DNA of 64,000 bases from Planctomycetota bacterium (GTDB taxonomy: Bacteria > Planctomycetota > JAJSAM01 > JAJVHW01). The notes under the pieces are model-generated. The model saw nothing but the letters and a program-made list of their open reading frames with translations, did no database searches and was not told where the DNA came from. The DNA lies in the NCBI GenBank assembly GCA_965248445.1, contig CBDFJG010000001.1, positions 407,979 to 471,978 on the forward strand, given 5' to 3'. A program made the position numbers and the translations under genes. Below are positions 35,447 through 52,196 of the stretch, piece after piece. The stretch's first letter is position 1; each line of letters opens with the position of its first letter.

Positions 35447-38047
35447 TCATCGCCGCAGATGGTCGAGGATCTCTCGGACGGCCTCGCGGAGCGTCAGGGG
35501 CTGCGCCCCACGGCGGCGGTTCTCCGCAGCGATCCGGAACGCGATGCGCCACTGCTCGAAGAGCACCCGATACGCCTCGACCAGGCCGTGCCTCGGGTCG
35601 TAGATGTGCGCCGCCTCGGAGGTGAGGCCGTTGAGTTCGAGGATGCGGAACCCCTCTCCGCGGCGAAACACGTCGAGATCGGTCGCCCGAACGTCGTACC
35701 GGCCGAAGTAGAAGCCGCCGAACGCGCGGCTGATGCGGTCGAACGCGTCCTCGAGCGCCGGAGTGCGGAACGCCTCCCCGTCCAGGAACACAGCGCCCAG
35801 GGAATGCGTGCCGATCTCCGCGATCGGCGCCTCCGCACCCACCGCGGGCACGGTGCGCAGTCGCGAGGCGTTCGTGCGGAGGTACACCGGCGCCATCCGC
35901 ACGGCACGGGCGTCGTCGAGAATCAGCCGTTCCAGCGTGCGGACGCCGTCGCCCGTGAGCGTCGGGAGCCGCTTCTCCGCGATCGAGAACACGCACCCGC
36001 GCTCCTCGCCGGGAATGCGGTAGTAGAAGACACCGAACTCGTGCCCATCGGCGTACTCCTGCACGATCGTGTCCCGCGTCGCGGCGGCGAGGTACGTACC
36101 GAGTTGCGCGTCGTCCCGGACGATGCTGACGCCCTCGCCGCGCTCTCCGACATCCGGTTTCAACACGACGGGGTACGAGAGTTCGTGGTCACGCAGAAAC
36201 GCGTTCGCCGCGGCGACGCGCTCAGCTGCGCCGAGGTTCGCGCCGACCGTCCGCAGCGCGGGCACCGGAGCCCCACTGGCGCGGAGGGCCTCCAGAATCT
36301 CGCTCTTCGACTCGCCGACGAGACCACCGCCTCGGATCGCCGGGTTCACGGCCGTCACGAGTGAGAGGCTGCGGTGCCGCAGCGCCAGCCACACGACGTA
36401 CGCCGTGACGGGGGCGTAGAAGACCCAGCGTGGCCAGAACTCGAAGTGACGAACGCGCCCGAACGAGCCAACGAGGAGACGCCGACCACGGTGGCTCAGC
36501 AGCTTCAGGCCGACGCGCTCGACGAAGAAGATCGCGGCGATGAGGATCAGCGCGGCGGGCAGCCCCCACCTGCCCAGTTGCTCGAGAGAGTCGTACGCTC
36601 GGGTGCCGACCAACGCGGAGAATCCCACGATGATGGGTGTCCAGATCGCGCAGGCGAGTGCGAAGTAGAGAGTGCACACCGCCAGGTTCGTGCGCAGGAC
36701 GCCGGCCGCGACGTAGGTCGGCAGGCGTAATCCGGGGACGAAGCGAGAGACGAAGATCGCACGAGCGCTGCGCGCGCCGAACCACGCAGCGGCCGCGTCG
36801 ACACGGTCCCGTGGGATGAACCAGCGCAGCGGAGCGCGAGAGAGAACCGGACGACCCAGCCAGCGTCCAGCGACGTACAGCGCGAGGTCGCTCAGGAAGT
36901 TGCCCAGCCAGCACGCGAGGATCGCTGCGACGAAGTCCATCCGACCCTGTGCGACCAGCAGGCCGGCACCGATGCAGGTCAGATCCTCCGAGACGAACGC
37001 CGACGCGATCAGGAGTCCCATCAGAACGAGCAGAGCGAGGCCCGAGAGCGGCGCGACGTCGTCGATGGCGAACGGCGTGGCCGCCGCCGCGACGCGCTCC
37101 GGAGCGGCCCCGGCGCGGCCAGACACCCGCCCGAGTTCGACCCGATCGAGGAAGCCGCCGACGACATCTGCGACCTCGTCCGTGCGGCTGAAGAGGACGA
37201 GATGCCCCTCCGGCAGCCATTGCAGTTCGCTCTGCGCAACGATCCGGTGGTGCTCGATTGCGACCTCCGGAGGGACGAGCGCATCCTCCCGTCCGTGCAC
37301 GATGAGCATCGGGCCGGCATGGCGCTCGAGCATGGCGCGCAGCGGGCGCTGATCGGTGTCGAAGAAGTTCCGCGCATACGGCACGCCGAACGCCGCGTCG
37401 TCGAACGCGCCGAAGTGCGGAAACCCCCAGTCGATCGCGCGAATCATCGCGAGCTGCATGCCGTGCACCACGTGGTTCATGCGGTACGAGCCGAACAGCT
37501 CGAGCTCTTGGACGCCGATAGCAGAGATCATGGAGACGGAACGGATTCGGTCGGGCGCCCGGTCCGCCGCGCGGACCGCCGCGCCGCCCGCCATGCTGAA
37601 CGCCACGAGGTGGGCACTCTCGCGTCCCAGTTCGTCGAGCAGCTGCTGGACGTACAGGGAGTGGGCGTCGGTCGAGTAGTCCGGCACGTGCCGTTCGGAG
37701 TGCATGAAGCCGGGTAGGTCCGGCACGAAGACGTCGTATCGCTCGCCGAGACGAGCGCCCATCGCGCCGAAGTCCTGGATGCTGCCCGGGCTGCCGTGGA
37801 GCAGCACCACGGCCGGAGCATCCGGCCGTCCACCGGGCGGGAAGCGCCGATAGACGACGCGGACGGACTGCGCAGTGAGTTCACCGCCGTCCACTGCACG
37901 CAGATGCGCCACTTGCTGACCCGGAAGAAGAGGCCTCTTGTCGCTCCGGGCCGCCGCCACGAGGTGCGAGACCACCAGAACGAGCACGTAGGCGATCAAG
38001 AGACGGACTGGCCAGCGTCTACGCGGCCGGGCGATCTCCGCGTCCAT
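35447..38047 (-). CDS. tripartite fusion: alpha/beta hydrolase + DedA/SNARE-associated membrane domain + ATP-grasp ligase
   Basis: 866 aa. N-terminal hydrolase with an FSMAGG nucleophile. Central DedA-like polytopic segment. C-terminal ATP-grasp (YPVVLKPDVGERGEGVSIV ... EFGVFYY). Confidence 0.65.
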   Translation of the reverse strand: MDAEIARPRRRWPVRLLIAYVLVLVVSHLVAAARSDKRPLLPGQQVAHLRAVDGGELTAQSVRVVYRRFPPGGRPDAPAVVLLHGSPGSIQDFGAMGARLGERYDVFVPDLPGFMHSERHVPDYSTDAHSLYVQQLLDELGRESAHLVAFSMAGGAAVRAADRAPDRIRSVSMISAIGVQELELFGSYRMNHVVHGMQLAMIRAIDWGFPHFGAFDDAAFGVPYARNFFDTDQRPLRAMLERHAGPMLIVHGREDALVPPEVAIEHHRIVAQSELQWLPEGHLVLFSRTDEVADVVGGFLDRVELGRVSGRAGAAPERVAAAATPFAIDDVAPLSGLALLVLMGLLIASAFVSEDLTCIGAGLLVAQGRMDFVAAILACWLGNFLSDLALYVAGRWLGRPVLSRAPLRWFIPRDRVDAAAAWFGARSARAIFVSRFVPGLRLPTYVAAGVLRTNLAVCTLYFALACAIWTPIIVGFSALVGTRAYDSLEQLGRWGLPAALILIAAIFFVERVGLKLLSHRGRRLLVGSFGRVRHFEFWPRWVFYAPVTAYVVWLALRHRSLSLVTAVNPAIRGGGLVGESKSEILEALRASGAPVPALRTVGANLGAAERVAAANAFLRDHELSYPVVLKPDVGERGEGVSIVRDDAQLGTYLAAATRDTIVQEYADGHEFGVFYYRIPGEERGCVFSIAEKRLPTLTGDGVRTLERLILDDARAVRMAPVYLRTNASRLRTVPAVGAEAPIAEIGTHSLGAVFLDGEAFRTPALEDAFDRISRAFGGFYFGRYDVRATDLDVFRRGEGFRILELNGLTSEAAHIYDPRHGLVEAYRVLFEQWRIAFRIAAENRRRGAQPLTLREAVREILDHLRR

Positions 38048-38059
38048 GAAGGCTTCCCC

Positions 38060-38794
38060 TCACCGGGGCGCCGCGCGCACAACGCGACGCGGGAGGCTCA
38101 GTACGGGGCCGGCGGGGGTCCGGCACGGCGGGCCCGGTGTGTGGCGCAGCTCCACCGTGACCGGCCCGACGTCGATGCGCGTCATGCTGCGCGTTGCGGC
38201 GTCCTCGCGATGCATGCACGGCGAGTACGGTCCGCGACCACCGGCGTGGCCGCGGTGGAACGCCTCCACGTGGTCGGGGGTTCGTTCAGCGAGTTCCCGG
38301 AACGCGGCGCTTCGGCGGACACGCACATCGCTCTGGCTGAACGCTGAGGAGATGAGTGGGACACGCCGGTCGGCGCGGCGGTCCTCGAGCCGTGACTGCC
38401 CGTCCCACTCGACGACGAGCGCTTGCGCGGCGGGAGTGAGCGCCGCGAGCACGAACGGGCGGTATGCGCTCAGGTCGGCCGCGGAGAGTCGTGTTGAGAC
38501 CGCCTCCACCGAAGACGCGTCCGCCAGTGACGATACGAGCAGCCCGCGACTCGTGAACTCATGCTCCGCGTGATTGGGCCGGCCGTATCCGTTCAGGATG
38601 CACACCGTCAGTCCCAGCTCGTTCGTGGCAATCCACGTCCCGCCGAAGTCCGCGTCCTGCGGGGCCAGAATGCGGACACCGCGAGACTCGTGAACAGAAG
38701 GCCCGATCTCCGGGCCGCGCGTCCGCCGTTCATCCCGGTTGAAGAAGAGGTGGTACCCCGCGTCACGTGCGGGCAGCCAGCTCACGGTGCACAT
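38060..38794 (-). CDS. NRDE-family (DUF833/TANGO2-like) protein
   Basis: MCTVSW N-terminus and an FFNRDE motif. Confidence 0.65.
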   Translation of the reverse strand: MCTVSWLPARDAGYHLFFNRDERRTRGPEIGPSVHESRGVRILAPQDADFGGTWIATNELGLTVCILNGYGRPNHAEHEFTSRGLLVSSLADASSVEAVSTRLSAADLSAYRPFVLAALTPAAQALVVEWDGQSRLEDRRADRRVPLISSAFSQSDVRVRRSAAFRELAERTPDHVEAFHRGHAGGRGPYSPCMHREDAATRSMTRIDVGPVTVELRHTPGPPCRTPAGPVLSLPRRVVRAAPR

Positions 38795-39318
38795 GTGCGG
38801 CTCTCCTGCCAGCTGTGCAGCGTGGATGGCGCAACGCCGAATTCCCGCCCCGGATCGTGGCCGGCGACGCGCAGGATCATGGCGACGACTGCGAAGTGAT
38901 GGACTGTGTGGCTGATCAGTGACTGGAGTTCCCGATCGAGCGAAGACGTCGTCCAGGGAACCTCGTCAGAGCCGGTTTGGGCGGCGTCCAGGCGGACCAC
39001 GAGCGGCCGGGGCACACCAGCGCCACGCATCCCGCGAAGCCGCGACTTCACGTCCCGGAGCCGCTGGATCACCGCGCTGCAGCTCCGTTCCAGGCGCACG
39101 TCGCGCTCTCGCGCGTCGTAGTTCACGCGGCCGTCCACCAGCCCGGCGAAGAGGCACTCGTAGAAGTCGATGCAGTGGCGCACATGGCTGCCGACGCCGC
39201 TCGACGCCAGGCGCGGCTCCGAACGCGCGTATGTCGCGTCATCGAGTCTCTCGATAACGCGAATGCCCTCGTCGAGTATCCGAACGTTGCTGCGGATGAG
39301 CGCTTCTCGCTGACTCAT
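38782..39318 (-). CDS. DinB-like/four-helix-bundle metalloprotein family (putative)
   Basis: His-containing motifs HCIDFYE and HTVHHF. Assignment is tentative. Confidence 0.35.
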   Translation of the reverse strand: MSQREALIRSNVRILDEGIRVIERLDDATYARSEPRLASSGVGSHVRHCIDFYECLFAGLVDGRVNYDARERDVRLERSCSAVIQRLRDVKSRLRGMRGAGVPRPLVVRLDAAQTGSDEVPWTTSSLDRELQSLISHTVHHFAVVAMILRVAGHDPGREFGVAPSTLHSWQESRTCAP

Positions 39319-39358
39319 GACGTCTCCGGATGATGAACGACCACGCGTCTCGACATGC

Positions 39359-40120
39359 CTAACCGAGGACCGGTGTGAATTGTGCCTGGACCGACCGATG
39401 CGCCGCGCGCGCCAGCGCCTTGCGGTCCCCGTCCACCACGGGGTTGGCGCCGAACGCCACTCTCGCGCGCACGGAGGGTATCTGGAGCAGCCCGTACAGG
39501 TGCCGCCCGAACGTCATGTCGCCCCACCAGCAAACCGACGTACTCGGTGGATGGGCGGCGCTACCGGTCTGGTACGAGAGGCTCGCGCACCACACCGGGC
39601 GTCCCGTCCTCGCTGGAACCTCGAAGATCGACGGCTTGAAGTGCAGCACCTCCGAACCCGCGGTGCTCGTGCCCTCCGGGAAGACCACGACGCCCACGTC
39701 CTCGGCCAGCGTTCGTTCGACCTCCGCGATCGCGCGCCGCAGATCCGCCTTCCGTTCCCGGTCGACGAAGAGGGTGCCGGACGTCCGCGCCAAGAGCCCG
39801 ATGACAGGCCACCGCGCGACATCCGACTTCGCAACGAACACGCAGTCCGCCAGCGTCAGCAGCACGACGATGTCGAGGTACGACAAGTGGTTGCAGACGA
39901 GGAAGAACGGAGCTTGCGGTGCGTGTCCGACGGTCTCGGTGCGCACGCCGAGCAACCACGCGACACCGCGCGCCCAACTGCGCTTGACCCAGATCCGCGC
40001 CCGCGTACCGAGGCGGGGCGCGACCAGAGCCAGTACGCGCGCAGCCACCAGCGCGACGAACCACACGAACGTGTGAATGCAGAGCGCAGCAGCTCGGACC
40101 CCAGCCCTCAGGTGTCCCAT
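39359..40120 (-). CDS. olsA: lysophospholipid/lyso-ornithine-lipid O-acyltransferase (PlsC family)
   Basis: NHLSYLD (HX4D) and FPEGTS motifs. Directly downstream of an OlsB-like gene. Confidence 0.6.
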   Translation of the reverse strand: MGHLRAGVRAAALCIHTFVWFVALVAARVLALVAPRLGTRARIWVKRSWARGVAWLLGVRTETVGHAPQAPFFLVCNHLSYLDIVVLLTLADCVFVAKSDVARWPVIGLLARTSGTLFVDRERKADLRRAIAEVERTLAEDVGVVVFPEGTSTAGSEVLHFKPSIFEVPARTGRPVWCASLSYQTGSAAHPPSTSVCWWGDMTFGRHLYGLLQIPSVRARVAFGANPVVDGDRKALARAAHRSVQAQFTPVLG

Positions 40121-40151
40121 GTCGTGTCGATCCGTGCTCTCGGCGAGTCGC

Positions 40152-40943
40152 TCACCGCGTGAAGGTCCGGAACGTCCGCTCGTCCATCGCGGCGACGTCG
40201 AGAATCGTGAGGAAGTCGATCGTGCCGAAGAAGCGGTCGAGAGCCGGCTCGCTGGCCACCTTGGCTCCATAGCGCAGGTAGGTGCTGAACAGCGTAGGGA
40301 TGGGTGCGTCCTCGCGACTCGGCACGTAGTCGTCCACGACACACGCGTAGCTCGGCAGCACGGGCACGAGCCAATCCGGGTGCGCGTGTCCCATGCGCCG
40401 CAGCTGATCGTGGAAGCGGAGGCCCTCGAGCGGGTCCTGGCTCGTCAGTGACGAGCATCCGAAGAAGTAGCGCTTCCTGTTCCACAGCACATATGAGGCG
40501 AGCCCCTTCCAGAGCAGGAACAGGACGGTGCGGTTGCGATGCTCCTTCGCGATGCACGCGCGACCGAGCTCGATCGACTGCGCGACGACTTCCGCAGGGA
40601 GGCCCGAGAGATCGAACTCGGTTTCCGCGTAGAAACCGTTCGCACGCTCGGCAGACTCGGCCACCTGCATCCGGTAGGTGCCGATGGTGCTGTCGCTCTC
40701 GTCGTCGATCACCATGACGTGCTCGCATTGTGCGTCGAAGCGGTCCGAGTCCCTGCCGGTGTCGAACGACTCTTCTAGTCCCTCCCCCATCTCGAGGTTG
40801 AACACCTCGAAGCGCATGCGAAACACGGCATCGAGGTCGGCCTCCGACCGCGCGAAGCGGACCCGGTACCGGCCGCGAACGTGATCGAGGTCCGGCGTCA
40901 GAGCTGTGAGTGCCGACCGACGGGCGTGGACGGTGTCGGACAT
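40152..40943 (-). CDS. olsB: ornithine N-acyltransferase-like (GNAT-fold putative-hemolysin family)
   Basis: OlsB family architecture of about 260 aa. Paired with a PlsC-family gene. Confidence 0.55.
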   Translation of the reverse strand: MSDTVHARRSALTALTPDLDHVRGRYRVRFARSEADLDAVFRMRFEVFNLEMGEGLEESFDTGRDSDRFDAQCEHVMVIDDESDSTIGTYRMQVAESAERANGFYAETEFDLSGLPAEVVAQSIELGRACIAKEHRNRTVLFLLWKGLASYVLWNRKRYFFGCSSLTSQDPLEGLRFHDQLRRMGHAHPDWLVPVLPSYACVVDDYVPSREDAPIPTLFSTYLRYGAKVASEPALDRFFGTIDFLTILDVAAMDERTFRTFTR

Positions 40944-40952
40944 GACGCTCTC

Positions 40953-41708
40953 CTACTCGAGTCTCCTATACGTCCCCGGATCGGCGTAGAGCACGAGCTG
41001 ATCGCCCGCTCGACGCAGCGTGCCGGTGACTTCGAGTGGCTCGGCCACCATGTCGAGCACCTCGCTGTTCACGGTGCGGCCCTCGGACGAGACGAGAAGG
41101 TAGTACGTCGCGATCCCCGATGCGTCGCGGGCCAGCAGGACCGGCGGGATCCCACCGCTGATGCAGCGGGTCGCACACGCGCGGTGCGGCTTCAGATTTC
41201 CGGGCTTCATCACTCCGAGGAAGCACTTGCTGTCGACGATCTCACCTCGGATCGTCTGCCGTCCCAGATCCTCAATCACGGACGAAGGCGGCGGCCCCGC
41301 CCCGGCGACCTGCTCGATCGTCCCGTCCGCGATCTCGATCATGGTGCGGTGATCGCGGTAGACCAGCGTGCCATCGAGGCGAACGCGCTGTCCGTCCAGT
41401 CCACTGACGGCATCGCCGGCGCCGTGTTTCCCGAACACGACGAGCAGGTAGCGCGACGTGCCCGCTCCGGTACCCGGACGCTCGACGATCAGCGTCGGAT
41501 AGGGCTTCGCCTCGATCCAGCCCTCGAACGAACGCACCGTGCCGAACTCGAAGTTCGATTGCGCGAACGGTCTCTGACTCGCGGAGAACACGGCCGCAAG
41601 TGCGACGCACGCGACGAGCACGATCAGGAGCCGGCCGCGGACGAACCGCGCCAGCGATGCGGGCGCGTCGGGCTTGTACCCGACGTAGAAGTCGCCGTCG
41701 TCAGCCAT
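40953..41708 (-). CDS. membrane-anchored hypothetical protein
   Basis: N-terminal TM helix. No recognisable domain. Confidence 0.4.
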   Translation of the reverse strand: MADDGDFYVGYKPDAPASLARFVRGRLLIVLVACVALAAVFSASQRPFAQSNFEFGTVRSFEGWIEAKPYPTLIVERPGTGAGTSRYLLVVFGKHGAGDAVSGLDGQRVRLDGTLVYRDHRTMIEIADGTIEQVAGAGPPPSSVIEDLGRQTIRGEIVDSKCFLGVMKPGNLKPHRACATRCISGGIPPVLLARDASGIATYYLLVSSEGRTVNSEVLDMVAEPLEVTGTLRRAGDQLVLYADPGTYRRLE

Positions 41709-42768
41709 CGTTCACCACCTCGGACGCGCCGGGGATCGCCGCCGGCGTAACGTGAGTGCCGGCGGCCAGCGGCTGCGGGTGGACGAGGACTCGCCCGTCC
41801 TCGACGCGCACGCGGAACGTCGGCACCTTCTCCGTGAACGGCTCGGGCGATCGCCCGCAGTCCGGCTTGTACTCGTAGCCGTGCCACGGGCAGACGACGC
41901 ACCCATTGACGATTCGCCCTTCGCCCAGCGGACCGTTCTGGTGCTGGCACGCGTTCGAGAGAGCGGAGACCTTCCCGTCGTACCGGAAGACCGCGACGCG
42001 ATCTCCGGAGAGGGCGAACGTGCGCCCGCGACCCTCTCTGAGATCGCCGACCGCGCAGAGGTCCACGAACCCTTCGTCCCGTGTTGCCGGGCGCGCCGGT
42101 TCCGCGTCCCGGCGCCGCTCCCGCAGGCCCGCAACGAGGTGCAACCCGAGCACCCAGGCCATGCCGACACCGAGGGCGCCGGCCAGGATCGGACTCGTCT
42201 CGGCCTGCAACACGCCGAGAACCACGTGCATGACGATCAGTCCGTACGCGAGATACACGAGCATGTGCAGCGCCTTCCAGAGCGGCGCCGTCAGGTTCGC
42301 GAGCCAGAAGTCATGGCTTGTGGCCGCCATGAGAAACAGGATGCCGAGAGCGATCAGACCGAGCGGTTGGAACGGGAACTGCGCGATGCTCTCGAACCGC
42401 GTGTTGGAGACCAGCACACTGACGAGGGGGTTCACATCGCCCAGTGCGTGGAACTGTACGAGCGAGAACCCGCCGTGCAGCAGCGCCACGAAGAACATCG
42501 AGACGCCCAGGTGCCTGCGGTTGTAGAGCAGCGGCAGGAAGCGGCGATCGAGGCGGCACAGCGGACCGATCGACAGGACCACGTGGAGCATCAAGAACGC
42601 GCAGGTGCCGAGCGCCCGGATGAGCATGGTCTCGGCCGTCGCCTCCGGGTGGATCGCGAACCCCGCCCCCACGAAGATGGCGAGATACCCGACCACGCCG
42701 ACCGCGATGACCTTGTCGTAGATCTTCTTCTGGCGATTCCAGCCGACAGCCTTGTAGGTGAGACTCAT
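41701..42768 (-). CDS. polytopic membrane protein with C-terminal Rieske [2Fe-2S] domain
   Basis: ATG at 42768 with an ATGA overlap onto the upstream gene. About 6 TM helices. Rieske ligands CQHQNGPLGEG...CPWHGYEY. Confidence 0.6.
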   Translation of the reverse strand: MSLTYKAVGWNRQKKIYDKVIAVGVVGYLAIFVGAGFAIHPEATAETMLIRALGTCAFLMLHVVLSIGPLCRLDRRFLPLLYNRRHLGVSMFFVALLHGGFSLVQFHALGDVNPLVSVLVSNTRFESIAQFPFQPLGLIALGILFLMAATSHDFWLANLTAPLWKALHMLVYLAYGLIVMHVVLGVLQAETSPILAGALGVGMAWVLGLHLVAGLRERRRDAEPARPATRDEGFVDLCAVGDLREGRGRTFALSGDRVAVFRYDGKVSALSNACQHQNGPLGEGRIVNGCVVCPWHGYEYKPDCGRSPEPFTEKVPTFRVRVEDGRVLVHPQPLAAGTHVTPAAIPGASEVVNDG

Positions 42769-43241
42769 CGCGCTGCTCCGACGTCGGCGCGTCCGACGAT
42801 CTCCTGGTGCGCCAGGCTGTAGAGCACAAGGTCGCCCGTGTCCCGCCGGCCTTCCGGGACATCGAAGCGGTGCAAGCCCGAGCCGCCGACCGTGCCCAGC
42901 AGATACGCGTCCGCCGGAATCCCATCGCCCTCGACTCCCGACAGCGACCAATAGAGCAGCAGGTCCGGCCGGCGCAGATCGTCGCCCACCTCGAGTTCGA
43001 TCGAGTTGCCGCCCGGCGGCGGGCCGCCGGCCAGGCGACGCGTCACGATCGGCAGCTCGCCCCACAGCGTCGCCGACTCCCATAGGAGGTGACCGGACTG
43101 CACCACGGACTGTCCCGGCGCAGGGCCGTCGGTGCTGGGAATCTCCGTGCGCGCGAGCAGCCCGGCGGCGAAGCCCACCGGTAGCAACAGAGCAAGCGCG
43201 GCCAGGACACGGAGGTGGCGCGAGCGGAGGCGGCTGATCAC
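42765..43241 (-). CDS. secreted hypothetical protein
   Basis: GTG start with a GGAGAG RBS. Signal peptide. Confidence 0.4.
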   Translation of the reverse strand: MISRLRSRHLRVLAALALLLPVGFAAGLLARTEIPSTDGPAPGQSVVQSGHLLWESATLWGELPIVTRRLAGGPPPGGNSIELEVGDDLRRPDLLLYWSLSGVEGDGIPADAYLLGTVGGSGLHRFDVPEGRRDTGDLVLYSLAHQEIVGRADVGAAR

Positions 43242-43501
43242 GTGAGGCTCTCCGCTGCATCTCGGTGCGCGGATCGCTCCGTCGGCGGAGCCGCGTCCCG
43301 GCGGGCCCAGCGCAGCAGGAGGTACGGCCACAGGGCCGCGGCGCCCGGCAGGATCAACAGTTTGAATCCCCAGGTGCTGCCGGCAGCAACCGGATCGATC
43401 CGGCGCGCGCCAACGCTCGCAAACGCGATTGCGAACAGCAGTCCGATGCCCGCATAGAGCAGCAGCGCCAGGACGATCGCCTCCGCTGTCCCGTGAGACA
43501 T
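43238..43501 (-). CDS. small two-TM membrane protein
   Basis: GGAGGGGAAGG RBS. 87 aa. Confidence 0.45.
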   Translation of the reverse strand: MSHGTAEAIVLALLLYAGIGLLFAIAFASVGARRIDPVAAGSTWGFKLLILPGAAALWPYLLLRWARRDAAPPTERSAHRDAAESLT

Positions 43502-43677
43502 TCAGCCTTCCCCTCCGTGCGCGACCTCGAATGGCCCAACGCGGTAGGCTCTCCGAACCGAGACCCACGTCTCCCCATTCCGTCCCTGCACGATTTTGCC
43601 GTACCTCGTCTCCGGGCCGTGCAGAGGAATATGAGGAGCTACCGGAGGGTTCGACAGGCTCGACAGCAGGGGGAAGC

Positions 43678-45306
43678 ATGGGGAACGTGTCCGTTGCGCG
43701 CTGGGATGAACTGGAGGACCGCGCTCCGGCGCATGCTCTGGTCGAGGGTGTCGACCTCGTGGTCGTCCGCTACGACGACAGTGTGTCCGTTTTCTACGGA
43801 CGCTGTCTGCACCGCGGGGCACTGCTCTCCGACGGCTTCGTGCGCGGCCAGGATCTGATCTGCGGCGTCCACGACTGGGACTACCGGCTGGACAGCGGGG
43901 TCAGCGCGTACAAGAACGACGAGGTGCTCCCTCGCTTCCGCTCCTGGCGCGAGGACGGCAACGTCCTGGTGGATGACACCGAGATCGCCGCGTGGGCGCT
44001 CGAGCATCCGCAGCCGTTCAACCGGGCGGCGTTCCAGGGCGCGTATCAGGACATCCACGGCACTCCGGACGAGCCCCGCACCAAGCTGATCCAGAAGCTC
44101 GCAGCGAAGGGCATCGAGGGCGTCGGGCACCACGGCCCGGTGGCGGCCATGGGAGTACCGGCACCGAACCTCCCTCGGTGGGACGACATCCAGTTCGTGA
44201 CAGCGCAGCTCTGGAAGGTCCCCCAGCTCGATGAGGTGCCGGTCGCCAGCGAGGTGGTGATCGGGCCGGGGGCAAAGAAGCCACTGCGGCTCGATATCCC
44301 GCTCTTCGTATCGGACATGAGCTTCGGCGCGCTGTCCGAGGAGGCGAAGGTGTCGCTCGCGATGGGCGCGGAGCTCGCCGGGACCGGGATCTGTTCCGGC
44401 GAGGGCGGGATGCTGCCCGAGGAGCAGGCCGAGAACTCGCGCTACTTCTACGAGCTCGCATCCGCCCGCTTCGGCTTCTCCATGGACAAGCTGCGACGCG
44501 TGCAAGCGTTCCACTTCAAGGGCGGTCAGGGTGCGAAGACCGGCACCGGAGGCCACCTGCCGGGGTCGAAGGTGAAGGGCAAGATCGCGGAGGTGCGCCA
44601 GCTCCCCGAGGGGCAACAGGCGGTCTCGCCGGCTCGGTTCCCCGAGTGGGACTCTCTCGAACCGTTCAAGGAGTTCTCCCACGCCGTGCGCGAGGAGACC
44701 GGGGGGATCCCGATCGGGTTCAAGCTCTCGGCCCAGCACGTGGAGAAGGACATCGACGCCGCCCTCGAGATCGGCGTCGACTACATCATCCTGGACGGCC
44801 GCGGCGGCGGCACCGGTGCGGCACCGCTCATCTTCCGCAACAACATCTCCGTGCCGACCATCCCGGCGCTGGCGCGCGCGCGGCGCCACCTTGATCGCTG
44901 TGGCGCGGACCAGGTGTCGCTCGTCATCACCGGCGGCCTGCGCGTACCGGACGACTTCGCGAAGGCGTTGGCGCTCGGCGCCGACGCGGTCGCGGTGTCG
45001 AACGCCGCCATGCAGGCGATCGGCTGCATCGCGATGCGCGCGTGCCACACCAACAACTGCCCTGTCGGGATCGCGACACAGAAGAAGCACCTGCGCGAGC
45101 GCCTCCCGGTGAACGAAGCAGCCAAGCGGCTGCACCGGTTCTTCCACGCATCGACGCACCTCATGCAGGTGCTGGCGCGAGCCTGCGGGCACACGCGCCT
45201 CGATCAGTTCAACGTCGACGACCTGACGACCTGGAAGCGCGACATGGCGCACCTCGCGGGCATCCGCTACGCGGGCGTGGGGTCGGTACAGGGAGAGGAC
45301 CGGTGA
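43678..45306 (+). CDS. Rieske [2Fe-2S] domain fused to glutamate-synthase-type FMN domain (GltS central-domain-like)
   Basis: Rieske ligands CLHRG...CGVHDWDY. GltB FMN-domain motifs (GEGGMLPEE, FKGGQGAKTGTGGHLPG, ILDGRGGGTGAAP). Confidence 0.7.
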   Translation: MGNVSVARWDELEDRAPAHALVEGVDLVVVRYDDSVSVFYGRCLHRGALLSDGFVRGQDLICGVHDWDYRLDSGVSAYKNDEVLPRFRSWREDGNVLVDDTEIAAWALEHPQPFNRAAFQGAYQDIHGTPDEPRTKLIQKLAAKGIEGVGHHGPVAAMGVPAPNLPRWDDIQFVTAQLWKVPQLDEVPVASEVVIGPGAKKPLRLDIPLFVSDMSFGALSEEAKVSLAMGAELAGTGICSGEGGMLPEEQAENSRYFYELASARFGFSMDKLRRVQAFHFKGGQGAKTGTGGHLPGSKVKGKIAEVRQLPEGQQAVSPARFPEWDSLEPFKEFSHAVREETGGIPIGFKLSAQHVEKDIDAALEIGVDYIILDGRGGGTGAAPLIFRNNISVPTIPALARARRHLDRCGADQVSLVITGGLRVPDDFAKALALGADAVAVSNAAMQAIGCIAMRACHTNNCPVGIATQKKHLRERLPVNEAAKRLHRFFHASTHLMQVLARACGHTRLDQFNVDDLTTWKRDMAHLAGIRYAGVGSVQGEDR

Positions 45307-47232
45307 CCGCACCGCAGGCCGGGAGCACCGAGAGCCGCACCGTCTGGCACCGCGCCCTCGCGCCCGAAGAGTTGCCGGAGGGGCGTGTCACCTCCGTCAC
45401 CTGCGGACTGAAGACGCTCTGCGTGACGCACTTCGGTGGCGAGTACGCGGCGCTCGACAACCGTTGCCCTCACCAGGGTGGCCCGCTCGGCGAAGGCTCC
45501 ATCGAGAAAGGACTGTTGCGCTGCCCCTGGCACGGCTGGGACTACCACCCGACCACGGGCAAGGCGCCCGGCTTCGACGACGGTGTGGAGACGTTCCCGA
45601 TACAGGTTCGCGAGGACGGCGTCTACGTGGGCCTCGAAGAGGAGCAGCCGCACGTCACCACGGTCTCCGACGTGATGGTCGAGACGATGGTGAACTGGGG
45701 TGTCACGTCGGTGTTCGGCATCGTGGGACACAGCAACCTCGGGCTCTCGGACGCCGTCCGCGTCCAGGCCGAGGGCGGCGGACTGCAGTACTTCGGGGTT
45801 CGTCACGAGGGCGCCGCGTCGTTCGCCGTGTCCGCCTACGGCAAGCTCACCGGGCGGCCTGCCGCATGCCTTGCAATCGCGGGTCCCGGCGCGACGAACC
45901 TGCTCACGGGACTGTGGGACGCGAACGTGGACCGCGCACCGGCGCTGGCACTGACCGGTCAGGTCGACACCCAGGTCCTCGGCCCCGGCGCGTTCCAGGA
46001 AGTGGACCTCGTCGCGGCATTCGGCCGTGTAGCGCAGTGGGCACAACCGGTGCTGCACACGAGCAGACATTCGGAACTCGTGAATCTCGCGTGCAAGAGC
46101 GCGATCCTGAATCGCGGGGTGTCGCACCTGATCTTCCCCGACGAGGTGCAGGTGCTGCCCGCGCCCGCCGGAGCGAAGGCGGGCGGACCGGCTGGGCGGC
46201 TGCCCGCTCGCGAGATCGCACCGGCTGCGGAGGCACTTGATGAGGCTCTCGCGCTGCTGCGCCGGTCCAAGCGCCCGCTGATCATCGTCGGCCACGGCGC
46301 GCGCTTCCACATGGACGGCGTGATCGCGTTGGCGGAGCGACTGGGCGCCGCGGTCGCCACCACGTTCAAGGGAAAGGGCCTGATCGCAGACGACCACGAG
46401 CTCGCGTGTGGTGTGCTCGGGCGCAGCGGGACCCCCATCGCCAGACACGGGGATCACACCCAAGAGGCCGACCATCCAGGTCGACTTCGACGCGATGACG
46501 CTGGGCAAGTTCCACGCCGTGGACGTGCCCGTGCTGGGCGAGATCGGCGTCACGACAGGGCTTCTGAGAGAGCGCCTGACTGACGGCGACCTCTGGGTCG
46601 ACCAGCGGTCGGATGTGGCGGCCCGTTGGACGATCTGGCGCGCAGAGAAGACCCGTCGCGAACAGGACGACTCCGGCAGCGGCATCAACTCGGCGGCCAT
46701 CTTCGCTGCGCTGAACAGGACGCTGCCCGCGGACGCGATCATCGCCGTCGACGTCGGCAACAACACCTACTCGTTCGGACGCTACTTCGAGCCGCGGCAA
46801 CAGGCCGTGCTGATGTCGGGTTACCTGGGTTCGATCGGATTTGCCCTGCCGGCGGCGATGGGTGCATGGGCCGCGACGCAGGAAGACGATCCACGCTTCA
46901 AGGGCCGCACCGTGGTCTCCATCTCGGGCGATGGCGGGTTCGGCCAGTACATGGTCGAACTGCTCACAGCGGTGAAGTACGGCATGAACATCACACACGT
47001 CCTGCTGAACAACAGCGAACTGGGGAAGATCAGCAAGGAGCAGCGCGCCGGCAAGTGGCACGTCTGGCAGACATCACTGCACAACCCCGACTTCGCGGAG
47101 TACGCCCGCATCTGCGGCGCACACGGGGCGCGCGTGACCGAGAAGAGCGACCTGGATGCCGCGCTCTCGGCTGCCCTGGCGTACGACGGCCCGGCGCTGG
47201 TCGAGATCGTCTCCGACGCGCTGCTCGTGTAG
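45303..47232 (+). pseudogene. Rieske [2Fe-2S] domain fused to thiamine-pyrophosphate enzyme (ALS/POX-like); reading frame switches 0 to +1 near 46440-46470 with about 40 expected residues missing
   Basis: GTGA overlap with the upstream stop. Rieske CPHQGGPLGEG...CPWHGWDY. TPP N-terminal and central domains end at GVLGRSGTPIA; the TPP-binding C-terminal domain (GDGGFGQYM) continues in the +1 frame. Confidence 0.5.
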
Positions 47233-47250
47233 CAGACGCAGGCGAGCCGT

Positions 47251-47295
47251 TCAGTACACGATGCGGTCGGGCTCGACGGCGGGCGTGAGGCGCCG
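47251..47295. repeat. direct repeat copy A (22/22 nt identical, ~45 nt similar) duplicating the 3' end of gene 47910..50114
   Basis: tcagtacacgatgcggtcgggc is identical at 47251 and 47910. On the minus strand copy A encodes ...TPAVEPDRIVY* versus ...TPALVPDRIVY* at the intact gene end. Confidence 0.7.
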
Positions 47296-47439
47296 TCGAT
47301 CGTCGCCTGCCGTGGTAGGTTCTCGCTGCGTTCGATGGTCACCCGAGCACAAGCGATCGAAAGCCGCGGCGTTGTCCGCGCCGCGAGAGCACATCCCGGA
47401 GACTGAGATGCAGAAGAGCCCCGTCACGGGGTCGGACCA

Positions 47440-47796
47440 ATGCCGCACGAGCTAACCGTTGCGGTCGAATGGGTCGTCCACGCGATCAACATCGTCACCA
47501 TCCTGGTGCTCGTCTGGGGCGTTGCGCGCGGATTCGTGCAGTTCGTCGCGTGCGAGCTGCGCCGCGTCGGTTCGGCCGCGCGCGCCGCCGCGCAGGCGAG
47601 GCTGCGCCGGCAGGTCGGGTTCTACCTGCTCTTCGGCCTCGAACTGTTGATCGCCGGCGACGTGATCGAGACCATGATCAAGCCAAGCCTGGAGCAACTG
47701 GCGATCCTCGCAGGAGTTTCGGCGATCCGTATCGTCACTGGGTACGCCCTCGGGCGCGAGTTGAGTGCAGAACACGAGGGCGTTTCGAACGCCTGA
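47440..47796 (+). CDS. DUF1622 family membrane protein
   Basis: 118 aa with two TM helices. Sits between the two direct-repeat copies. Confidence 0.55.
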   Translation: MPHELTVAVEWVVHAINIVTILVLVWGVARGFVQFVACELRRVGSAARAAAQARLRRQVGFYLLFGLELLIAGDVIETMIKPSLEQLAILAGVSAIRIVTGYALGRELSAEHEGVSNA

Positions 47797-47909
47797 TGGC
47801 AGCTCGCTTCGATGCATAGCGCCGCCGGACCCGACGAACTGCCCCGTCGTCCCCGCTACGCGGGCGCGGGTTCGGTGCACGGAGAGCACCGATGAAGGTG
47901 CGTTGACCG

Positions 47910-47954
47910 TCAGTACACGATGCGGTCGGGCACGAGCGCCGGGGTGACCTCGGC
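47910..47954. repeat. direct repeat copy B (native 3' end of CAP/P-domain gene)
   Basis: See copy A. Confidence 0.7.
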
Positions 47955-50114
47955 CTCGCCGTAGAACTCCCCGAGCCAGAGCGAGATGCGGATCCGCCCG
48001 TCCGCGTCGAGCACGCTGTGGGCGCCGTCGAGGATCGCCTTGAACGTGTTGCGCCGCGGGTTGAGGACCAGCTTGCGGACCCTGTTGTTGCGCCCGTACT
48101 GGATGCGCGTCTCCTCGAGCACGTCGGCCAGTCCGCGCCAGAGTGCCGCCACGTCGCCGACCCGCAGTTCAGCGAGCGGCGGGATCGGCGGCAACCCGCG
48201 TCCCAGGTAGCGGCCCTTGATGACGGTCTTTCGTCCCGTTGCGCCCGCTCGCTTGCTCGTGACGGCGTCGATGCGCAGGCCCTCGCCGAGCGGCGGGGTG
48301 CGCCGGCCGCGGTAGACACCCTTCTTTGCGCGCACGTCCTCTGTCAGGAACGCGTCGCCGGCGAGCAGTTCCACACGCAGTTCGCTCCCGACGACCGGGA
48401 GGTCTGTACGGACGAGCTTCGCGGTCACGCGCGCCTTCGAGGTGCCGCGCACGGAACCGTCCACTCTCGCGGTCAGGGTGCCGTTCGCGGTCGCCACTTC
48501 GCCGCCCGCGGCGAGCGCCGCGCCGACGTCCAGCCGCACGACCTCCGCCAGCCCGTCCAGGTCGCGCAGCACGATCTCCATCGGTCCAGTCGTGTCGAGC
48601 CCGCCGCCGGTCTCGGCGTCGAGGGAGACCGCGACCGAGTCCCGTCCGACCTTCTTGCGGTCCTTGACCTTGAGCTTGGTGACGAAGAGCTGCACGCTGC
48701 GTGCGAAGACCGGACCCTCGTAACGCGGACGGATGTGGAGTCGCGCCGACACGAGGTTGCCCGCCTGGCCGGACGTGTCCGCGATCACGAGCGTCCACGT
48801 ACCGAGCCACGGCTCGCCGATGAAGCTGTCGAGCGACTCGTGGGGCCGCAGAGATGCGTCGAAGGTCCCGGCGAGATCAGCGCCGCTTGCGTCCGCCTCC
48901 CACACCTTGACCTCGGTGCCGCTCGGCGAACGCAGTGTGACGCCGACCTGGCCGCGCTCGGGGTGCGCGAAGTCGATGTCCAGATCGACGTCGCCCACCA
49001 GGGTTCGCAACGGGTGGACATCCGATACAGCGAACGGGAACTCCGTCGATCCGAGCGCGGGAACCGCGCCCGGCACCGCGTCGAACGCCGCCGCAGCCGG
49101 CGGCGCGACCCGGTCCTGCAGGCGGAAGTCTGCCTTGATGTTCCCGGCGCGTCCGAACTGGAGAGTGCTGCCCGTCGTGGACTGCGCCGTGAAGAGTTCG
49201 GACACGGTGCCCGCGACGCCGGTGGCGCGAATTGTCACTGCGCCGGCAAACCCGTCCACCGGCACGGCGTAACCGCCGCTCGATGAAGAGATCGCATAGC
49301 TGCTCGAACGGTTGACGTCGATGCGCACGCCCGGCAGTCCCTCGCCCGGATCCCACATCTGGTCGAAGTCCTTGTCCTCGTACACAACACCTGTCACGTA
49401 GCGCAGGTTGGCGCCTGCGCGCGTGCCGAGGACCAGGGTCGCGACCAGCGGGCCGACTCCGCCGGGCGGCGGGTTGTCACGCCGCACAAAGCCCGGCCCG
49501 ACCTCCACGAAGTCGAGGAACGCCTGGTTCTGGTGGTTGATGATCGCCGCGCGATTCCACAGCCCCGGACGCCCGGTCGTCGGGTCGAGCACCTGGCCCC
49601 AGTCCACGGCCCAGGACGCGTACGCCGTCAGCACGTCGGCGGCGTAACCGTTCACGAGCTGTCCGGACCAGAACGCGGGGTACCCGTTCTGCCCCATGCG
49701 CGTCAGCAGGCCCGGCTGCCCCGGCAGCGTCTGCGCCTGGCGGTCGGCGGAGCGCATCGCGATGGACCACTGGTTCCCGACGAGTGCGAGGTTCTGGTTG
49801 AAGACGAGCGGCGGCTCCTGCGAGTACGTCCTCCAAGCCGCCTGGGACTCCGCGCGGGTCCAGTGCAGGGGATCGGCGGCCAGCGCGCCGTCGTACTCGA
49901 ACTTGACGCTCGCGGAGTTGTAGTCCGCGGCGATGCGGTCCCCCTCGCCCGACGGATCCGAGCGGGCCCGGTTGATGAGTTCCACCATGTGCTGCTGGTC
50001 GTCGGTCGGATCGCCGTGCTCGTAGAGCAGCGTCCCGGGCACCTCTTGCGCCGCCGCGGTAGCTGCGAACGCGACGCCCGCCAGAATCGCCCCAACTCGC
50101 GTGAAGTGCCTCAC
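47910..50114 (-). CDS. secreted CAP/SCP (PR-1-like) domain protein with proprotein-convertase P-domain
   Basis: Signal peptide. CAP motif region (HMVELINRARSDP). P-domain-like segment (GVTLRSPSGTEVKVWE...GTWTLVIADTSGQAGNLVSARLHI). Confidence 0.55.
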   Translation of the reverse strand: MRHFTRVGAILAGVAFAATAAAQEVPGTLLYEHGDPTDDQQHMVELINRARSDPSGEGDRIAADYNSASVKFEYDGALAADPLHWTRAESQAAWRTYSQEPPLVFNQNLALVGNQWSIAMRSADRQAQTLPGQPGLLTRMGQNGYPAFWSGQLVNGYAADVLTAYASWAVDWGQVLDPTTGRPGLWNRAAIINHQNQAFLDFVEVGPGFVRRDNPPPGGVGPLVATLVLGTRAGANLRYVTGVVYEDKDFDQMWDPGEGLPGVRIDVNRSSSYAISSSSGGYAVPVDGFAGAVTIRATGVAGTVSELFTAQSTTGSTLQFGRAGNIKADFRLQDRVAPPAAAAFDAVPGAVPALGSTEFPFAVSDVHPLRTLVGDVDLDIDFAHPERGQVGVTLRSPSGTEVKVWEADASGADLAGTFDASLRPHESLDSFIGEPWLGTWTLVIADTSGQAGNLVSARLHIRPRYEGPVFARSVQLFVTKLKVKDRKKVGRDSVAVSLDAETGGGLDTTGPMEIVLRDLDGLAEVVRLDVGAALAAGGEVATANGTLTARVDGSVRGTSKARVTAKLVRTDLPVVGSELRVELLAGDAFLTEDVRAKKGVYRGRRTPPLGEGLRIDAVTSKRAGATGRKTVIKGRYLGRGLPPIPPLAELRVGDVAALWRGLADVLEETRIQYGRNNRVRKLVLNPRRNTFKAILDGAHSVLDADGRIRISLWLGEFYGEAEVTPALVPDRIVY

Positions 50115-50218: not shown

Positions 50219-50941
50219 ATGACGAAGCCCTACATCGGCCCCGACGTGCGACTGGGCGAGAACGTGAAGGTCCACCCGTTCGCCTACATCGAGGGGCACA
50301 CGACGATCGGGGACGGCTGCGAGATCTTCCCCCACACGGCGATCGGCACACCGCCGCACGACGTGTCCTACAAGGGCGCCCCGACGCGTCTCGAGATCGG
50401 CGCGGAGTGCGTGATCCGCGAGGGCGTCACGATCCACCGCGGCAGCGAGAAGGAGGACGGCGTGACCCGCGTCGGGTCCCGCTGCTACCTCATGGCCGGC
50501 TCCCACGTCGGCCACGACTGCCGTGTGGGCGACGACGTGATCGTGACGAACGCGTCGACGCTCGGCGGTCACGCGGTCGTGGAGGAGAAGGTCCTGATCT
50601 CGGCCCTCGCAGCCGTCCATCAGTTCACCCGCGTAGGAACGATGGCGATGGTCGCGGGCGGCGCCATGGTGGTTCAGGACGTTCCGCCGTACTGCTTGGC
50701 ACACGGCGACCGCGCGCGTCTGGTCGGCCTGAACGAAGTCGGACTCGACCGCCGGGGAGTCCCCACCGACTCGGTCCACGCCCTTCGACGGACGTACCGC
50801 CTCGTGTTCCGCTCCGGCCACCCGCGCGACGAGGCCGTCGACCTCGCCCGCGCCGAATGGGGTGAGGTGCCCGAGGTCGAGCGCATGCTCTCCTTCATCG
50901 AGTCCTCGAGGCGCGGCGTGGCGCGACACGGCCGGAAGTAG
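50219..50941 (+). CDS. lpxA: acyl-ACP--UDP-N-acetylglucosamine O-acyltransferase
   Basis: Hexapeptide-repeat left-handed beta-helix. Aligns closely with E. coli LpxA along its length, including the C-terminal helical domain. Confidence 0.75.
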   Translation: MTKPYIGPDVRLGENVKVHPFAYIEGHTTIGDGCEIFPHTAIGTPPHDVSYKGAPTRLEIGAECVIREGVTIHRGSEKEDGVTRVGSRCYLMAGSHVGHDCRVGDDVIVTNASTLGGHAVVEEKVLISALAAVHQFTRVGTMAMVAGGAMVVQDVPPYCLAHGDRARLVGLNEVGLDRRGVPTDSVHALRRTYRLVFRSGHPRDEAVDLARAEWGEVPEVERMLSFIESSRRGVARHGRK

Positions 50942-51042
50942 CGCCGACGTTCGCGAGAGTGGCTCCGGGGGCGCCGGAACGGGCTTGCGCAGCACCGTGG
51001 GTTGCGGGCAATCTGGGCGGCACACCGCTCGGGGAGGGGAAC

Positions 51043-52185: not shown

Positions 52186-52196
52186 CCCGCTCGAGG

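Follow-up and report, generated by a model that had tools for sequence, protein, structure and literature searches.

A cluster of three Rieske proteins in two divergent operons

The stretch of DNA analysed here, 64,000 nucleotides of a Planctomycetota genome (called the window below), belongs to a Gram-negative chromosome, has a G+C content of about 68% and carries genes for LpxA, TopA and ThyA near the locus of interest. Between positions 41701 and 47232, i.e. within 5.5 kb, three proteins with a Rieske [2Fe-2S] domain are encoded: a membrane protein joining a ferric reductase domain (FRD) to a C-terminal Rieske domain (FRD::Rieske), an oxidoreductase related to the flavin mononucleotide (FMN) domain of glutamate synthase (Rieske::GltS-FMN) and a thiamine pyrophosphate (TPP) enzyme (Rieske::TPP). 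Such a trio had been proposed from the nucleotide letters alone (the original prediction), and Pfam searches bear it out: all three PF00355 scores lie above the gathering threshold of 20.3 bits, and Glu_synthase as well as TPP_enzyme_N, TPP_enzyme_M and TPP_enzyme_C were matched in the respective proteins (Table 1). The canonical CxH and CxxH ligands, 15-17 residues apart, are present in all three proteins, can be aligned with one another as Rieske ligands and are invariant in homologues (CLHRG...CGVH, CPHQGG...CPWHG and CQHQNG...CPWHG). Both fusions are genuine. Open reading frames (ORFs) are continuous through Rieske and catalytic parts, and the architecture recurs in thousands of full-length homologues, which rules out mis-called starts as the cause of the fusions.

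The extra cysteines that form a disulfide in bc1/b6f-type Rieske proteins are absent from all three domains. Rieske motifs without the bc1-type disulfide cysteines mark low-potential, ferredoxin-type clusters, and by this established rule the three centres of the window would be of the low-potential, ferredoxin type. The nearest curated NCBIfam models for these domains are the dioxygenase ferredoxins AndAb and HcaC and also NirD; none of the proteins of the cluster reaches the cut-off of an NCBIfam equivalog. The Rieske domains of the TPP enzyme and of FRD::Rieske are 41% identical. A Rieske non-haem iron oxygenase system was considered and rejected, as no oxygenase alpha subunit, mononuclear-iron domain or reductase was found in the proteins or their neighbours.

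The cluster is a composite of two modules. Module A, on the plus strand, would be a translationally coupled pair of soluble flavoenzymes whose genes overlap by GTGA, as originally described (GTG start at 45303-45305, upstream TGA at 45304-45306). Shine-Dalgarno-like sequences precede both genes, namely AGGGGGA 5' of the Rieske::GltS-FMN ATG and GGGAGAGG at 45291-45298, just 5' of the Rieske::TPP GTG. Module B, on the minus strand, consists of s87, s155, FRD::Rieske and p251, with s87 as the first gene of the operon. Its four genes are joined by a GTGA overlap (s155 start GTG with the s87 stop), an ATGA overlap (FRD::Rieske start with the upstream gene) and an 8-nt overlap. The membrane Rieske protein had been recognised, but as an over-extended 519-aa ORF (41701-43260), whereas homologues of 349-374 aa indicate a gene of 41701-42768; the stretch 42765-43501 holds the two further small genes s155 and s87. 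The cluster also reaches beyond the bounds first given to it (41701-47232), at least to p251. Two soluble flavoenzymes with a built-in Rieske domain and a predicted membrane haem protein are grouped at this locus, all from widespread and conserved families. The region between the operons had no sigma-70 consensus match and no Rfam match, a promoter and terminator scan of 43100-47900 gave nothing over background, and no riboswitch or other RNA element was found in 38000-50000 at E<=0.1.

Table 1 Features of the Rieske locus and its flanks (positions in the window)
Feature	Position	Strand	Evidence
OlsA-like acyltransferase, after the OlsB-like gene	39359..~40135	-	Pfam Acyltransferase 78 bits
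OlsB-like N-acyltransferase, 9 nt downstream of p251	40152..40943	-	Pfam Acetyltransf_5 104.6 bits
p251, N-in single-transmembrane protein, periplasmic domain ~200 aa	40953..41708	-	predicted structure, homologue alignment
FRD::Rieske membrane protein, 355 aa	41701..42768	-	Pfam Ferric_reduct 49.4 bits (threshold 28), Rieske 59.5 bits
s155, membrane-anchored protein, 158 aa	42765..43241	-	weak homology to L002 (167 aa), L010/L019
s87, small membrane protein, 87 aa	43238..43501	-	58% identical to L002 113-aa gene
Divergent intergenic region, 176 bp	43502..43677	.	separates the two operons
Rieske::GltS-FMN oxidoreductase, 542 aa, intact	43678..45306	+	Pfam Glu_synthase 302 bits, Rieske 45.5 bits
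Rieske::TPP 5' part, frame 3	45303..46442	+	Pfam Rieske 59.3 bits, TPP_N 103.8 bits, TPP_M positions 1-72 of 137
Deletion/frameshift junction	46443..46445	+	sequence read, homologue alignment, halves in different frames
Rieske::TPP 3' part, frame 1	46444..47232	+	Pfam TPP_enzyme_C 122 bits; GDG...NN motif
DUF1622 protein, three transmembrane helices, downstream of the TPP gene	47440..47796	+	Pfam DUF1622 64.5 bits

Two flavoenzymes with N-terminal Rieske domains

Rieske::GltS-FMN consists of the Rieske domain (approximately residues 1-105), a linker and a glutamate-synthase-type FMN TIM barrel that aligns to GltS alpha residues ~856-1152. The Rieske ligands C43, H45, C62 and H65 are invariant in 44 homologues; invariant in homologues, too, is the motif C450-x5-C456-x4-C461, which aligns with the cysteines of the GltS [3Fe-4S] cluster. 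The protein has an exact database match (P0001) and its N-terminus agrees with those of homologues. PF01645 is the sole domain of the GltB architecture that Pfam matched, and PRK11750, the NCBIfam model of the GltS large subunit, gave 137 bits where its cut-off is 1047. Bona fide GltS membership was rejected, with the other domains absent and the score this far under the cut-off, and the protein is, to judge from its domain content, a relative of the GltS FMN domain and not a glutamate synthase.

The fusions are no rarities: both families are large, already catalogued and generically named in databases. Counted as clusters at 90% identity, each has at least 8000 homologues, and in all 120 best matches listed for each the architecture is the same, with lengths of 532-555 aa for Rieske::GltS-FMN (best matches ~73-76% identical) and 653-677 aa for Rieske::TPP. 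Best matches of the fusions at ~72-76% identity come from Acidobacteriota, Gemmatimonadota, Myxococcota, Planctomycetota, Alpha- and Gammaproteobacteria, Nitrospinota, Poribacteria and one cyanobacterium. The nearest loci belong to metagenome-assembled genomes (MAGs) of Acidobacteriota and Thermoanaerobaculia, and haloarchaeal megaplasmids encode the protein at 59-63% identity.

In a homologue from Vibrio fortis the catalytic domain is 67% identical (residues 129-533) and a tandem CDGSH [2Fe-2S] module stands where the window protein has its Rieske domain; zf-CDGSH was matched by Pfam in the Vibrio protein and not in the window's Rieske::GltS-FMN. This homologue corresponds to the 'type 5 CISD', the term of Lin et al. 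2011 (PMC3174974) for proteins that join tandem CDGSH to a GltS FMN domain. Both proteins place a [2Fe-2S] module in front of the GltS-FMN domain and both are functionally uncharacterised, whereas the module itself differs, with a Rieske fold (2 Cys + 2 His) in the window protein and tandem CDGSH (3 Cys + 1 His) in the type 5 CISD. The exchange supports the view that the N-terminal module of GltS-FMN proteins is an interchangeable [2Fe-2S] carrier. It is the best available evidence that this domain would serve as an electron carrier, since two unrelated [2Fe-2S] folds occupy one position on the same catalytic core.

The Rieske domains might alternatively be sensors of redox state, O2 or NO, or assembly or dimerisation modules that regulate the flavoenzymes instead of conducting electrons in catalysis, in which case the FMN enzyme might catalyse a redox-neutral reaction, as N-methylglutamate synthase does. 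This would fit the name methylamine-glutamate N-methyltransferase subunit C that JGI gives to some Rieske::GltS-FMN homologues, the frequent discussion of CDGSH/NEET clusters as sensors or cluster donors (PMC3174974) and the loose tethering of the Rieske domain in an AlphaFold2 model. We nonetheless consider it very improbable: all four Rieske ligands are invariant, the retained [3Fe-4S] motif indicates an electron path, the same domain is found on a predicted haem-containing transmembrane electron carrier, and the neighbourhood contains no MgsA or MgsB partner domain.

The TPP part of Rieske::TPP is nearest to Escherichia coli PoxB (237 bits), followed by pyruvate oxidases. Its predicted fusion to a Rieske domain holds, but the single ORF 45303-47232 does not, as the reading frame changes from 3 (up to ~46442) to 1 (46444 onwards). 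The Rieske domain and TPP_enzyme_N are encoded in the 5' part and TPP_enzyme_C in the 3' part, with the middle domain divided between the two (first half and end, respectively). When aligned with six intact homologues, the window's protein proved to lack a conserved middle-domain segment of about 20 residues, SWFMNESDCLLVLGASFSNH, which leaves a gap of 19 columns between the conserved GTPIA and TGITPK. We infer that about 56 nt (3n+2) were deleted near 46443, shifting the frame; frame 3 runs into a stop at 46581-46583 after the junction. TPP_N, TPP_M, TPP_C, the catalytic Glu and the GDG...NN motif are all present in the intact homologues, while the window copy is frameshifted with a partial TPP_M. 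From the sequence, the gene would be either a pseudogene or an assembly error. Because its two halves are equally similar to intact homologues (75% identity for the 5' part, against homologues of 654-672 aa, and 74% for the 3' part), the lesion would be either recent or such an error. A second intact copy of the TPP gene was not found in the window.

Membrane module and recurrent gene neighbourhoods

FRD::Rieske (homologues of 349-374 aa) contains six transmembrane helices or hydrophobic segments by hydropathy, and its His pairs H86/H98 and H168/H181, spaced by 12 and 13 residues, form a predicted two-haem b motif. A cytoplasmic location of the C-terminal Rieske domain is predicted from the positive-inside flanks. 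Proteins with this architecture were catalogued in 2013 as model M4, with no function given (PMC3591440). The neighbouring p251 has 3813 homologues, no Pfam or NCBIfam match, and adjoins FRD::Rieske in almost all loci with enough sequence. AlphaFold2 models its domain as two OB-like β-barrels (predicted local distance difference test, pLDDT, 87), and C162, H175, C178 and C182 are invariant. The best Foldseek match in the PDB is a single-stranded DNA-binding protein with tandem OB folds at a weak TM-score of 0.23, and matches are to generic OB folds only. Neither s155 nor s87 has a Pfam match; s87 is also found between the TPP and FRD::Rieske genes in alphaproteobacterial operons.

Eighty genome loci anchored on Rieske::GltS-FMN were compared by clustering their ORFs; 35 of the 80 have full 10-kb flanks. 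Among these 35, the TPP gene adjoins Rieske::GltS-FMN in 13-14 (~37%), usually directly downstream, FRD::Rieske and p251 lie near it in 12 (~34%), and both partners are present in 6-7. Three Roseibium loci (L071, L072, L076) carry GltS, TPP, s87, FRD::Rieske and p251 in this order on one strand, and the metagenome contigs L093 and L102 likewise have every component on a single strand; the genes are closely spaced in all these loci. Modules A and B repeatedly stand side by side, in varied orders and orientations, in Alphaproteobacteria, Gammaproteobacteria, Acidobacteriota, Thermoanaerobaculia, Phycisphaerales and sponge symbionts.

Three adjacency patterns (GltS with TPP, GltS with FRD, and all together) would be explained if the locus encoded flavoenzymes that oxidise their substrates and are wired by Rieske domains to a transmembrane haem conduit. 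We favour this reading tentatively and hold it to be plausible, if somewhat short of probable.

The main rival is a self-contained donor-acceptor pair: Rieske::TPP would oxidise pyruvate or another 2-oxoacid and pass electrons from Rieske to Rieske to the GltS-type enzyme, which would aminate 2-oxoglutarate, giving a pyruvate-driven glutamate synthase independent of NAD(P)H and ferredoxin, with the membrane module serving as an optional sink or having no part in it. Oxidation of 2-oxoacids proceeds at a very low potential, which could power a reductive amination. The mostly direct downstream position of the TPP gene, with ORFs that often overlap or nearly abut (including the GTGA in the window), agrees with such a pair, and so do the many loci, one of them haloarchaeal, that have GltS and TPP without the membrane module. 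Potassium-glutamate osmoadaptation would also suit the marine and halophile distribution, an MscS channel gene found upstream in L085 and the CPA-family antiporter gene that lies directly upstream of Rieske::GltS-FMN in 27 of the 80 loci, often overlapping its start (L001, L021, L036 and L062 among them; e.g. L021:8677-10008); the curated model nearest to this antiporter is a K+/H+ antiporter, at a score under its cut-off. On the other hand, the pair leaves the loci with GltS, FRD::Rieske and p251 and no TPP unexplained (L010, L017, L022, L027, L048, L069), and Rieske::GltS-FMN stands alone in 14 of the 35. L086 has a Rieske::TPP with no Rieske::GltS-FMN within 9 kb, and in L096 Rieske::TPP immediately precedes the membrane module. 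The window itself combines a broken donor with an intact, conserved acceptor. We regard this alternative as possible but unlikely.

A second set of loci was anchored on p251 (metagenome contigs; 34 loci of at least 7 kb). Here the module s87-s155-FRD::Rieske-p251 is nearly universal, with s87 in 29, s155 in 24, FRD::Rieske in 32 and p251 in 33, and flavoenzymes adjoin it in five loci only (L090, L093, L096, L102, L109). The aminolipid genes olsB and olsA and an Abhydrolase-VTT gene are often found beside it, as in the window and in L084. The membrane Rieske protein is part of a four-gene module of its own that is commoner without the two flavoenzymes than with them. Most p251-anchored loci have no flavoenzymes within 10 kb, and the link between modules A and B, recurrent as it is, is thus facultative.

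It is also conceivable that there is no functional coupling in this genome, i.e. that three independent enzymes work with generic redox partners, that the head-to-head operons are a lineage-specific accident and that the membrane module really goes with the aminolipid or lipid-remodelling genes downstream of it. Besides the absence of flavoenzymes from most p251-anchored loci, this reading can draw on olsB, a direct neighbour of p251 in 15 or more metagenome loci as well as in L084, a syntenic relative with s87-s155-FRD::Rieske-p251-OlsB-OlsA-...-Abhydrolase/VTT but an ABC transporter upstream instead of Rieske::GltS-FMN. The order in L084 and the adjacency of olsB suggest that the FRD::Rieske module may be linked to aminolipid or membrane remodelling. 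Inheritance alone hardly explains, however, why modules A and B adjoin in several phyla in varied order and orientation and in single-strand operons, and the proteins share the same type of Rieske domain. We therefore judge the absence of coupling to be unlikely as well, and slightly more so than the donor-acceptor pair.

Further genes recur around these modules. The DUF1622 protein encoded downstream of the TPP gene has homologues whose genes immediately precede s87 in L120, L146 and L157 and follow Rieske::TPP in L038; being a recurrent neighbour, it is a possible accessory part. DUF5996 (~285 aa) adjoins Rieske::GltS-FMN or Rieske::TPP in 11 of the 80 loci (e.g. L021:13648-14502, L080:11618-12466, L086:8120-9004); neither it nor the CPA antiporter was found in the window. 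In a Nitrosomonas MAG (L037:2527-7716), Rieske::GltS-FMN is followed by a second GltS-FMN paralogue with two N-terminal transmembrane helices and then by a Rieske-less TPP enzyme, so that GltS-FMN and TPP enzymes are also paired there without Rieske domains. The haloarchaeal megaplasmid NZ_CP147842.1 of Salinirubellus (L087, 3618-8677) encodes Rieske::TPP (661 aa) and Rieske::GltS-FMN (567 aa) with one small gene between them, an arrangement implying transfer of the pair between domains of life; it lies near a TauE exporter gene and merA.

Two gene groups flank the cluster in the window. On the minus strand, 35447-40943 encodes the OlsB-like and OlsA-like proteins, a 178-aa ORF, a TANGO2-like protein and an 866-aa fusion of Abhydrolase_1 and VTT/DedA, in the same order as in L084. 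Beside lpxA (50219-50941), at 47910-50114 (minus strand) and 50959-53279, proteins with a proprotein-convertase P-domain, NosD/beta-helix and CarboxypepD_reg domains are encoded. The P-domain protein is large and of the secreted type, and this group appears unrelated to the Rieske cluster.

A proposed electron path and related systems

The wiring element that modules A and B have in common would be the low-potential-type Rieske [2Fe-2S] domain. In module A, the GltS-type FMN/[3Fe-4S] enzyme would interconvert an amino acid and its 2-imino or 2-oxo acid, in the simplest case glutamate and 2-oxoglutarate plus ammonia, the amino acid being oxidised at the FMN/[3Fe-4S] site in the cytoplasm. The PoxB-like TPP enzyme, probably with flavin adenine dinucleotide (FAD), would carry out the oxidative decarboxylation of a cytoplasmic 2-oxoacid. 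The nearest relatives, PoxB and the GltS FMN/[3Fe-4S] domain, point to 2-oxoacid and amino-acid redox chemistry; the results give no sign of the C-C or C-N transformation first suggested. In both enzymes the N-terminal Rieske domain would act as a one-electron port, standing in for ferredoxin or GltD in GltS and for the quinone-facing membrane tail in PoxB. Module B would provide a conduit of six helices and two haems b, with the cytoplasmic Rieske domain as electron entry and p251 with its Cys3His site in the periplasm. Electrons may then pass from substrate to flavin, in the GltS-type enzyme on to [3Fe-4S], to the Rieske domain of the enzyme and from there to that of FRD::Rieske, and, where module B is present, via the inner and outer haem to p251 or a periplasmic acceptor. 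The whole would resemble a NOX/FRE/MsrQ-like system in split form, with substrate-specific dehydrogenases taking the place of the NADPH domain. Outward flow would match all characterised FRD members and the polarity of the membrane potential; characterised FRD-family proteins all pass electrons outward from the cytoplasmic side (PMC3591440 and general knowledge).

A dedicated electron-transfer chain, as put forward in the original prediction, is supported by the cross-phylum neighbourhoods, the single-strand operons (L072, L093, L102) and the exchange of CDGSH for Rieske. As sequenced, however, the three-part chain is incomplete in this genome because its TPP member is disrupted, and given the ~56-nt frameshifting deletion, the GltS-type enzyme would be the only possible feeder.

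Several points weigh against the proposed wiring. Recurrent partners are missing near Rieske::GltS-FMN in the 14 full-flank loci mentioned above, and most p251-anchored loci have olsB/olsA lipid genes beside the module in place of flavoenzymes. We found no paper characterising any of these families in the literature searched. FAD in the TPP enzyme is predicted from family resemblance. The AlphaFold2 model of Rieske::GltS-FMN leaves the placement of the Rieske domain relative to the [3Fe-4S] site unfixed (predicted TM-score 0.65; linker pLDDT 39-55), and its cofactor loops are uncertain as well as the linker. The substrate may also differ from glutamate, because active-site motifs differ from those of true GltS (QGAKTGTGGH and SPARFPEW versus QGAKPGEGGQ and SPPPHHDI); the Lys of QGAK and the Arg of EVR, which we take to be 2-oxoglutarate-binding residues, are kept, with adjoining motif residues changed. 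Finally, flow could go either way, since the Rieske-GltS couple would be roughly isopotential with glutamate/2-oxoglutarate.

In a bolder form of the wiring proposal, the six genes would make up a transmembrane electron-export machine, a new kind of split NOX/FRE analogue. Flavoenzymes oxidising amino acids and 2-oxoacids would dock by Rieske-to-Rieske contacts onto the two-haem FRD conduit, which would reduce a metal or thiol centre of p251. We consider this improbable. If true, metabolites of central carbon and nitrogen metabolism would be connected directly to redox chemistry in the periplasm, with neither NAD(P)H nor quinones between them; the output might be reduction of Fe(III) or Cu(II), repair in the periplasm or, in marine bacteria, the production of extracellular superoxide.

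The architectures are already in databases, and the proteins are PoxB-like, GltS-FMN-like and FRD-like redox proteins of known kinds; the combinations FRD+Rieske (PMC3591440) and CDGSH+GltS-FMN (PMC3174974) have been catalogued as architectures only. Both fusion families are, beyond their size, unusually conserved, with best matches ~70% identical across phyla and ~60% identical into haloarchaea. Should the wiring hold, the long-catalogued 2Fe-2S::GltS-FMN proteins (type 5 CISDs and their Rieske sisters) would gain a role, a large class of bacterial ferric-reductase-domain proteins would gain a physiological electron donor, and a PoxB-like enzyme would deliver electrons to an iron-sulfur domain instead of quinone. 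The proposal is directly testable in cultured carriers, which include Roseibium, Hoeflea, Ahrensia and Halorubrum. The window itself is of smaller significance, as it adds one more family member with a defective TPP gene, and it is the families, more than the locus, that are of interest.

Further known systems can be compared with the cluster. The Rieske-type ferredoxins of ring-hydroxylating dioxygenases and NirD are the closest sequence models for the Rieske domains and likewise lack the bc1-type disulfide cysteines, whereas in the window these domains form part of flavoenzymes or of a predicted haem membrane protein. GltB (PDB 1EA0, 2VDC, 1OFD, 7MFM) shares with Rieske::GltS-FMN the PF01645 TIM barrel of its FMN/[3Fe-4S] domain, the motifs MSFGALS and QGAK...GG...LPG and the Cx5Cx4C ligands; unlike GltB, the window protein lacks glutaminase, central and GXGXG domains as well as a GltD partner, and carries a Rieske domain at its N-terminus.

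In PoxB, the pyruvate:ubiquinone oxidoreductase (PDB 3EYA/3EY9), and in Lactobacillus pyruvate oxidase, the TPP_N/M/C fold aligns end to end with Rieske::TPP. PoxB-like features read from the alignment are the catalytic Glu in the RHEGAA motif and the diphosphate-binding motif GDG...NN. Unlike PoxB, Rieske::TPP has an N-terminal Rieske domain of about 110 aa and lacks the C-terminal lipid- and membrane-binding peptide, the alignment stopping at PoxB residue ~528 of 572, four residues before the end of the query. Bona fide PoxB membership was rejected on the missing tail and on NCBIfam scores of an intact homologue (P0125) under the equivalog cut-offs, with 371 against 742 for PRK08611 (pyruvate oxidase, the best) and 295 against 792 for PRK09124.

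FRD::Rieske has the PF01794 six-transmembrane core and the His pairs in common with the FRD superfamily (MsrQ/YedZ, bacterial FRE/NOX and STEAP). It is not an MsrQ, scoring 41 bits against an equivalog cut-off of 130 and having p251 as neighbour instead of MsrP. Both do have an extracytoplasmic partner encoded next door, the partner being the molybdoenzyme MsrP for MsrQ and the tandem-OB Cys3His protein p251 for FRD::Rieske. Electron entry differs as well, with a Rieske cluster in FRD::Rieske versus FAD/NADPH in NOX and quinol or Fre in MsrQ, and compared with FRD-superfamily systems the FRD::Rieske module has two extra small membrane subunits.

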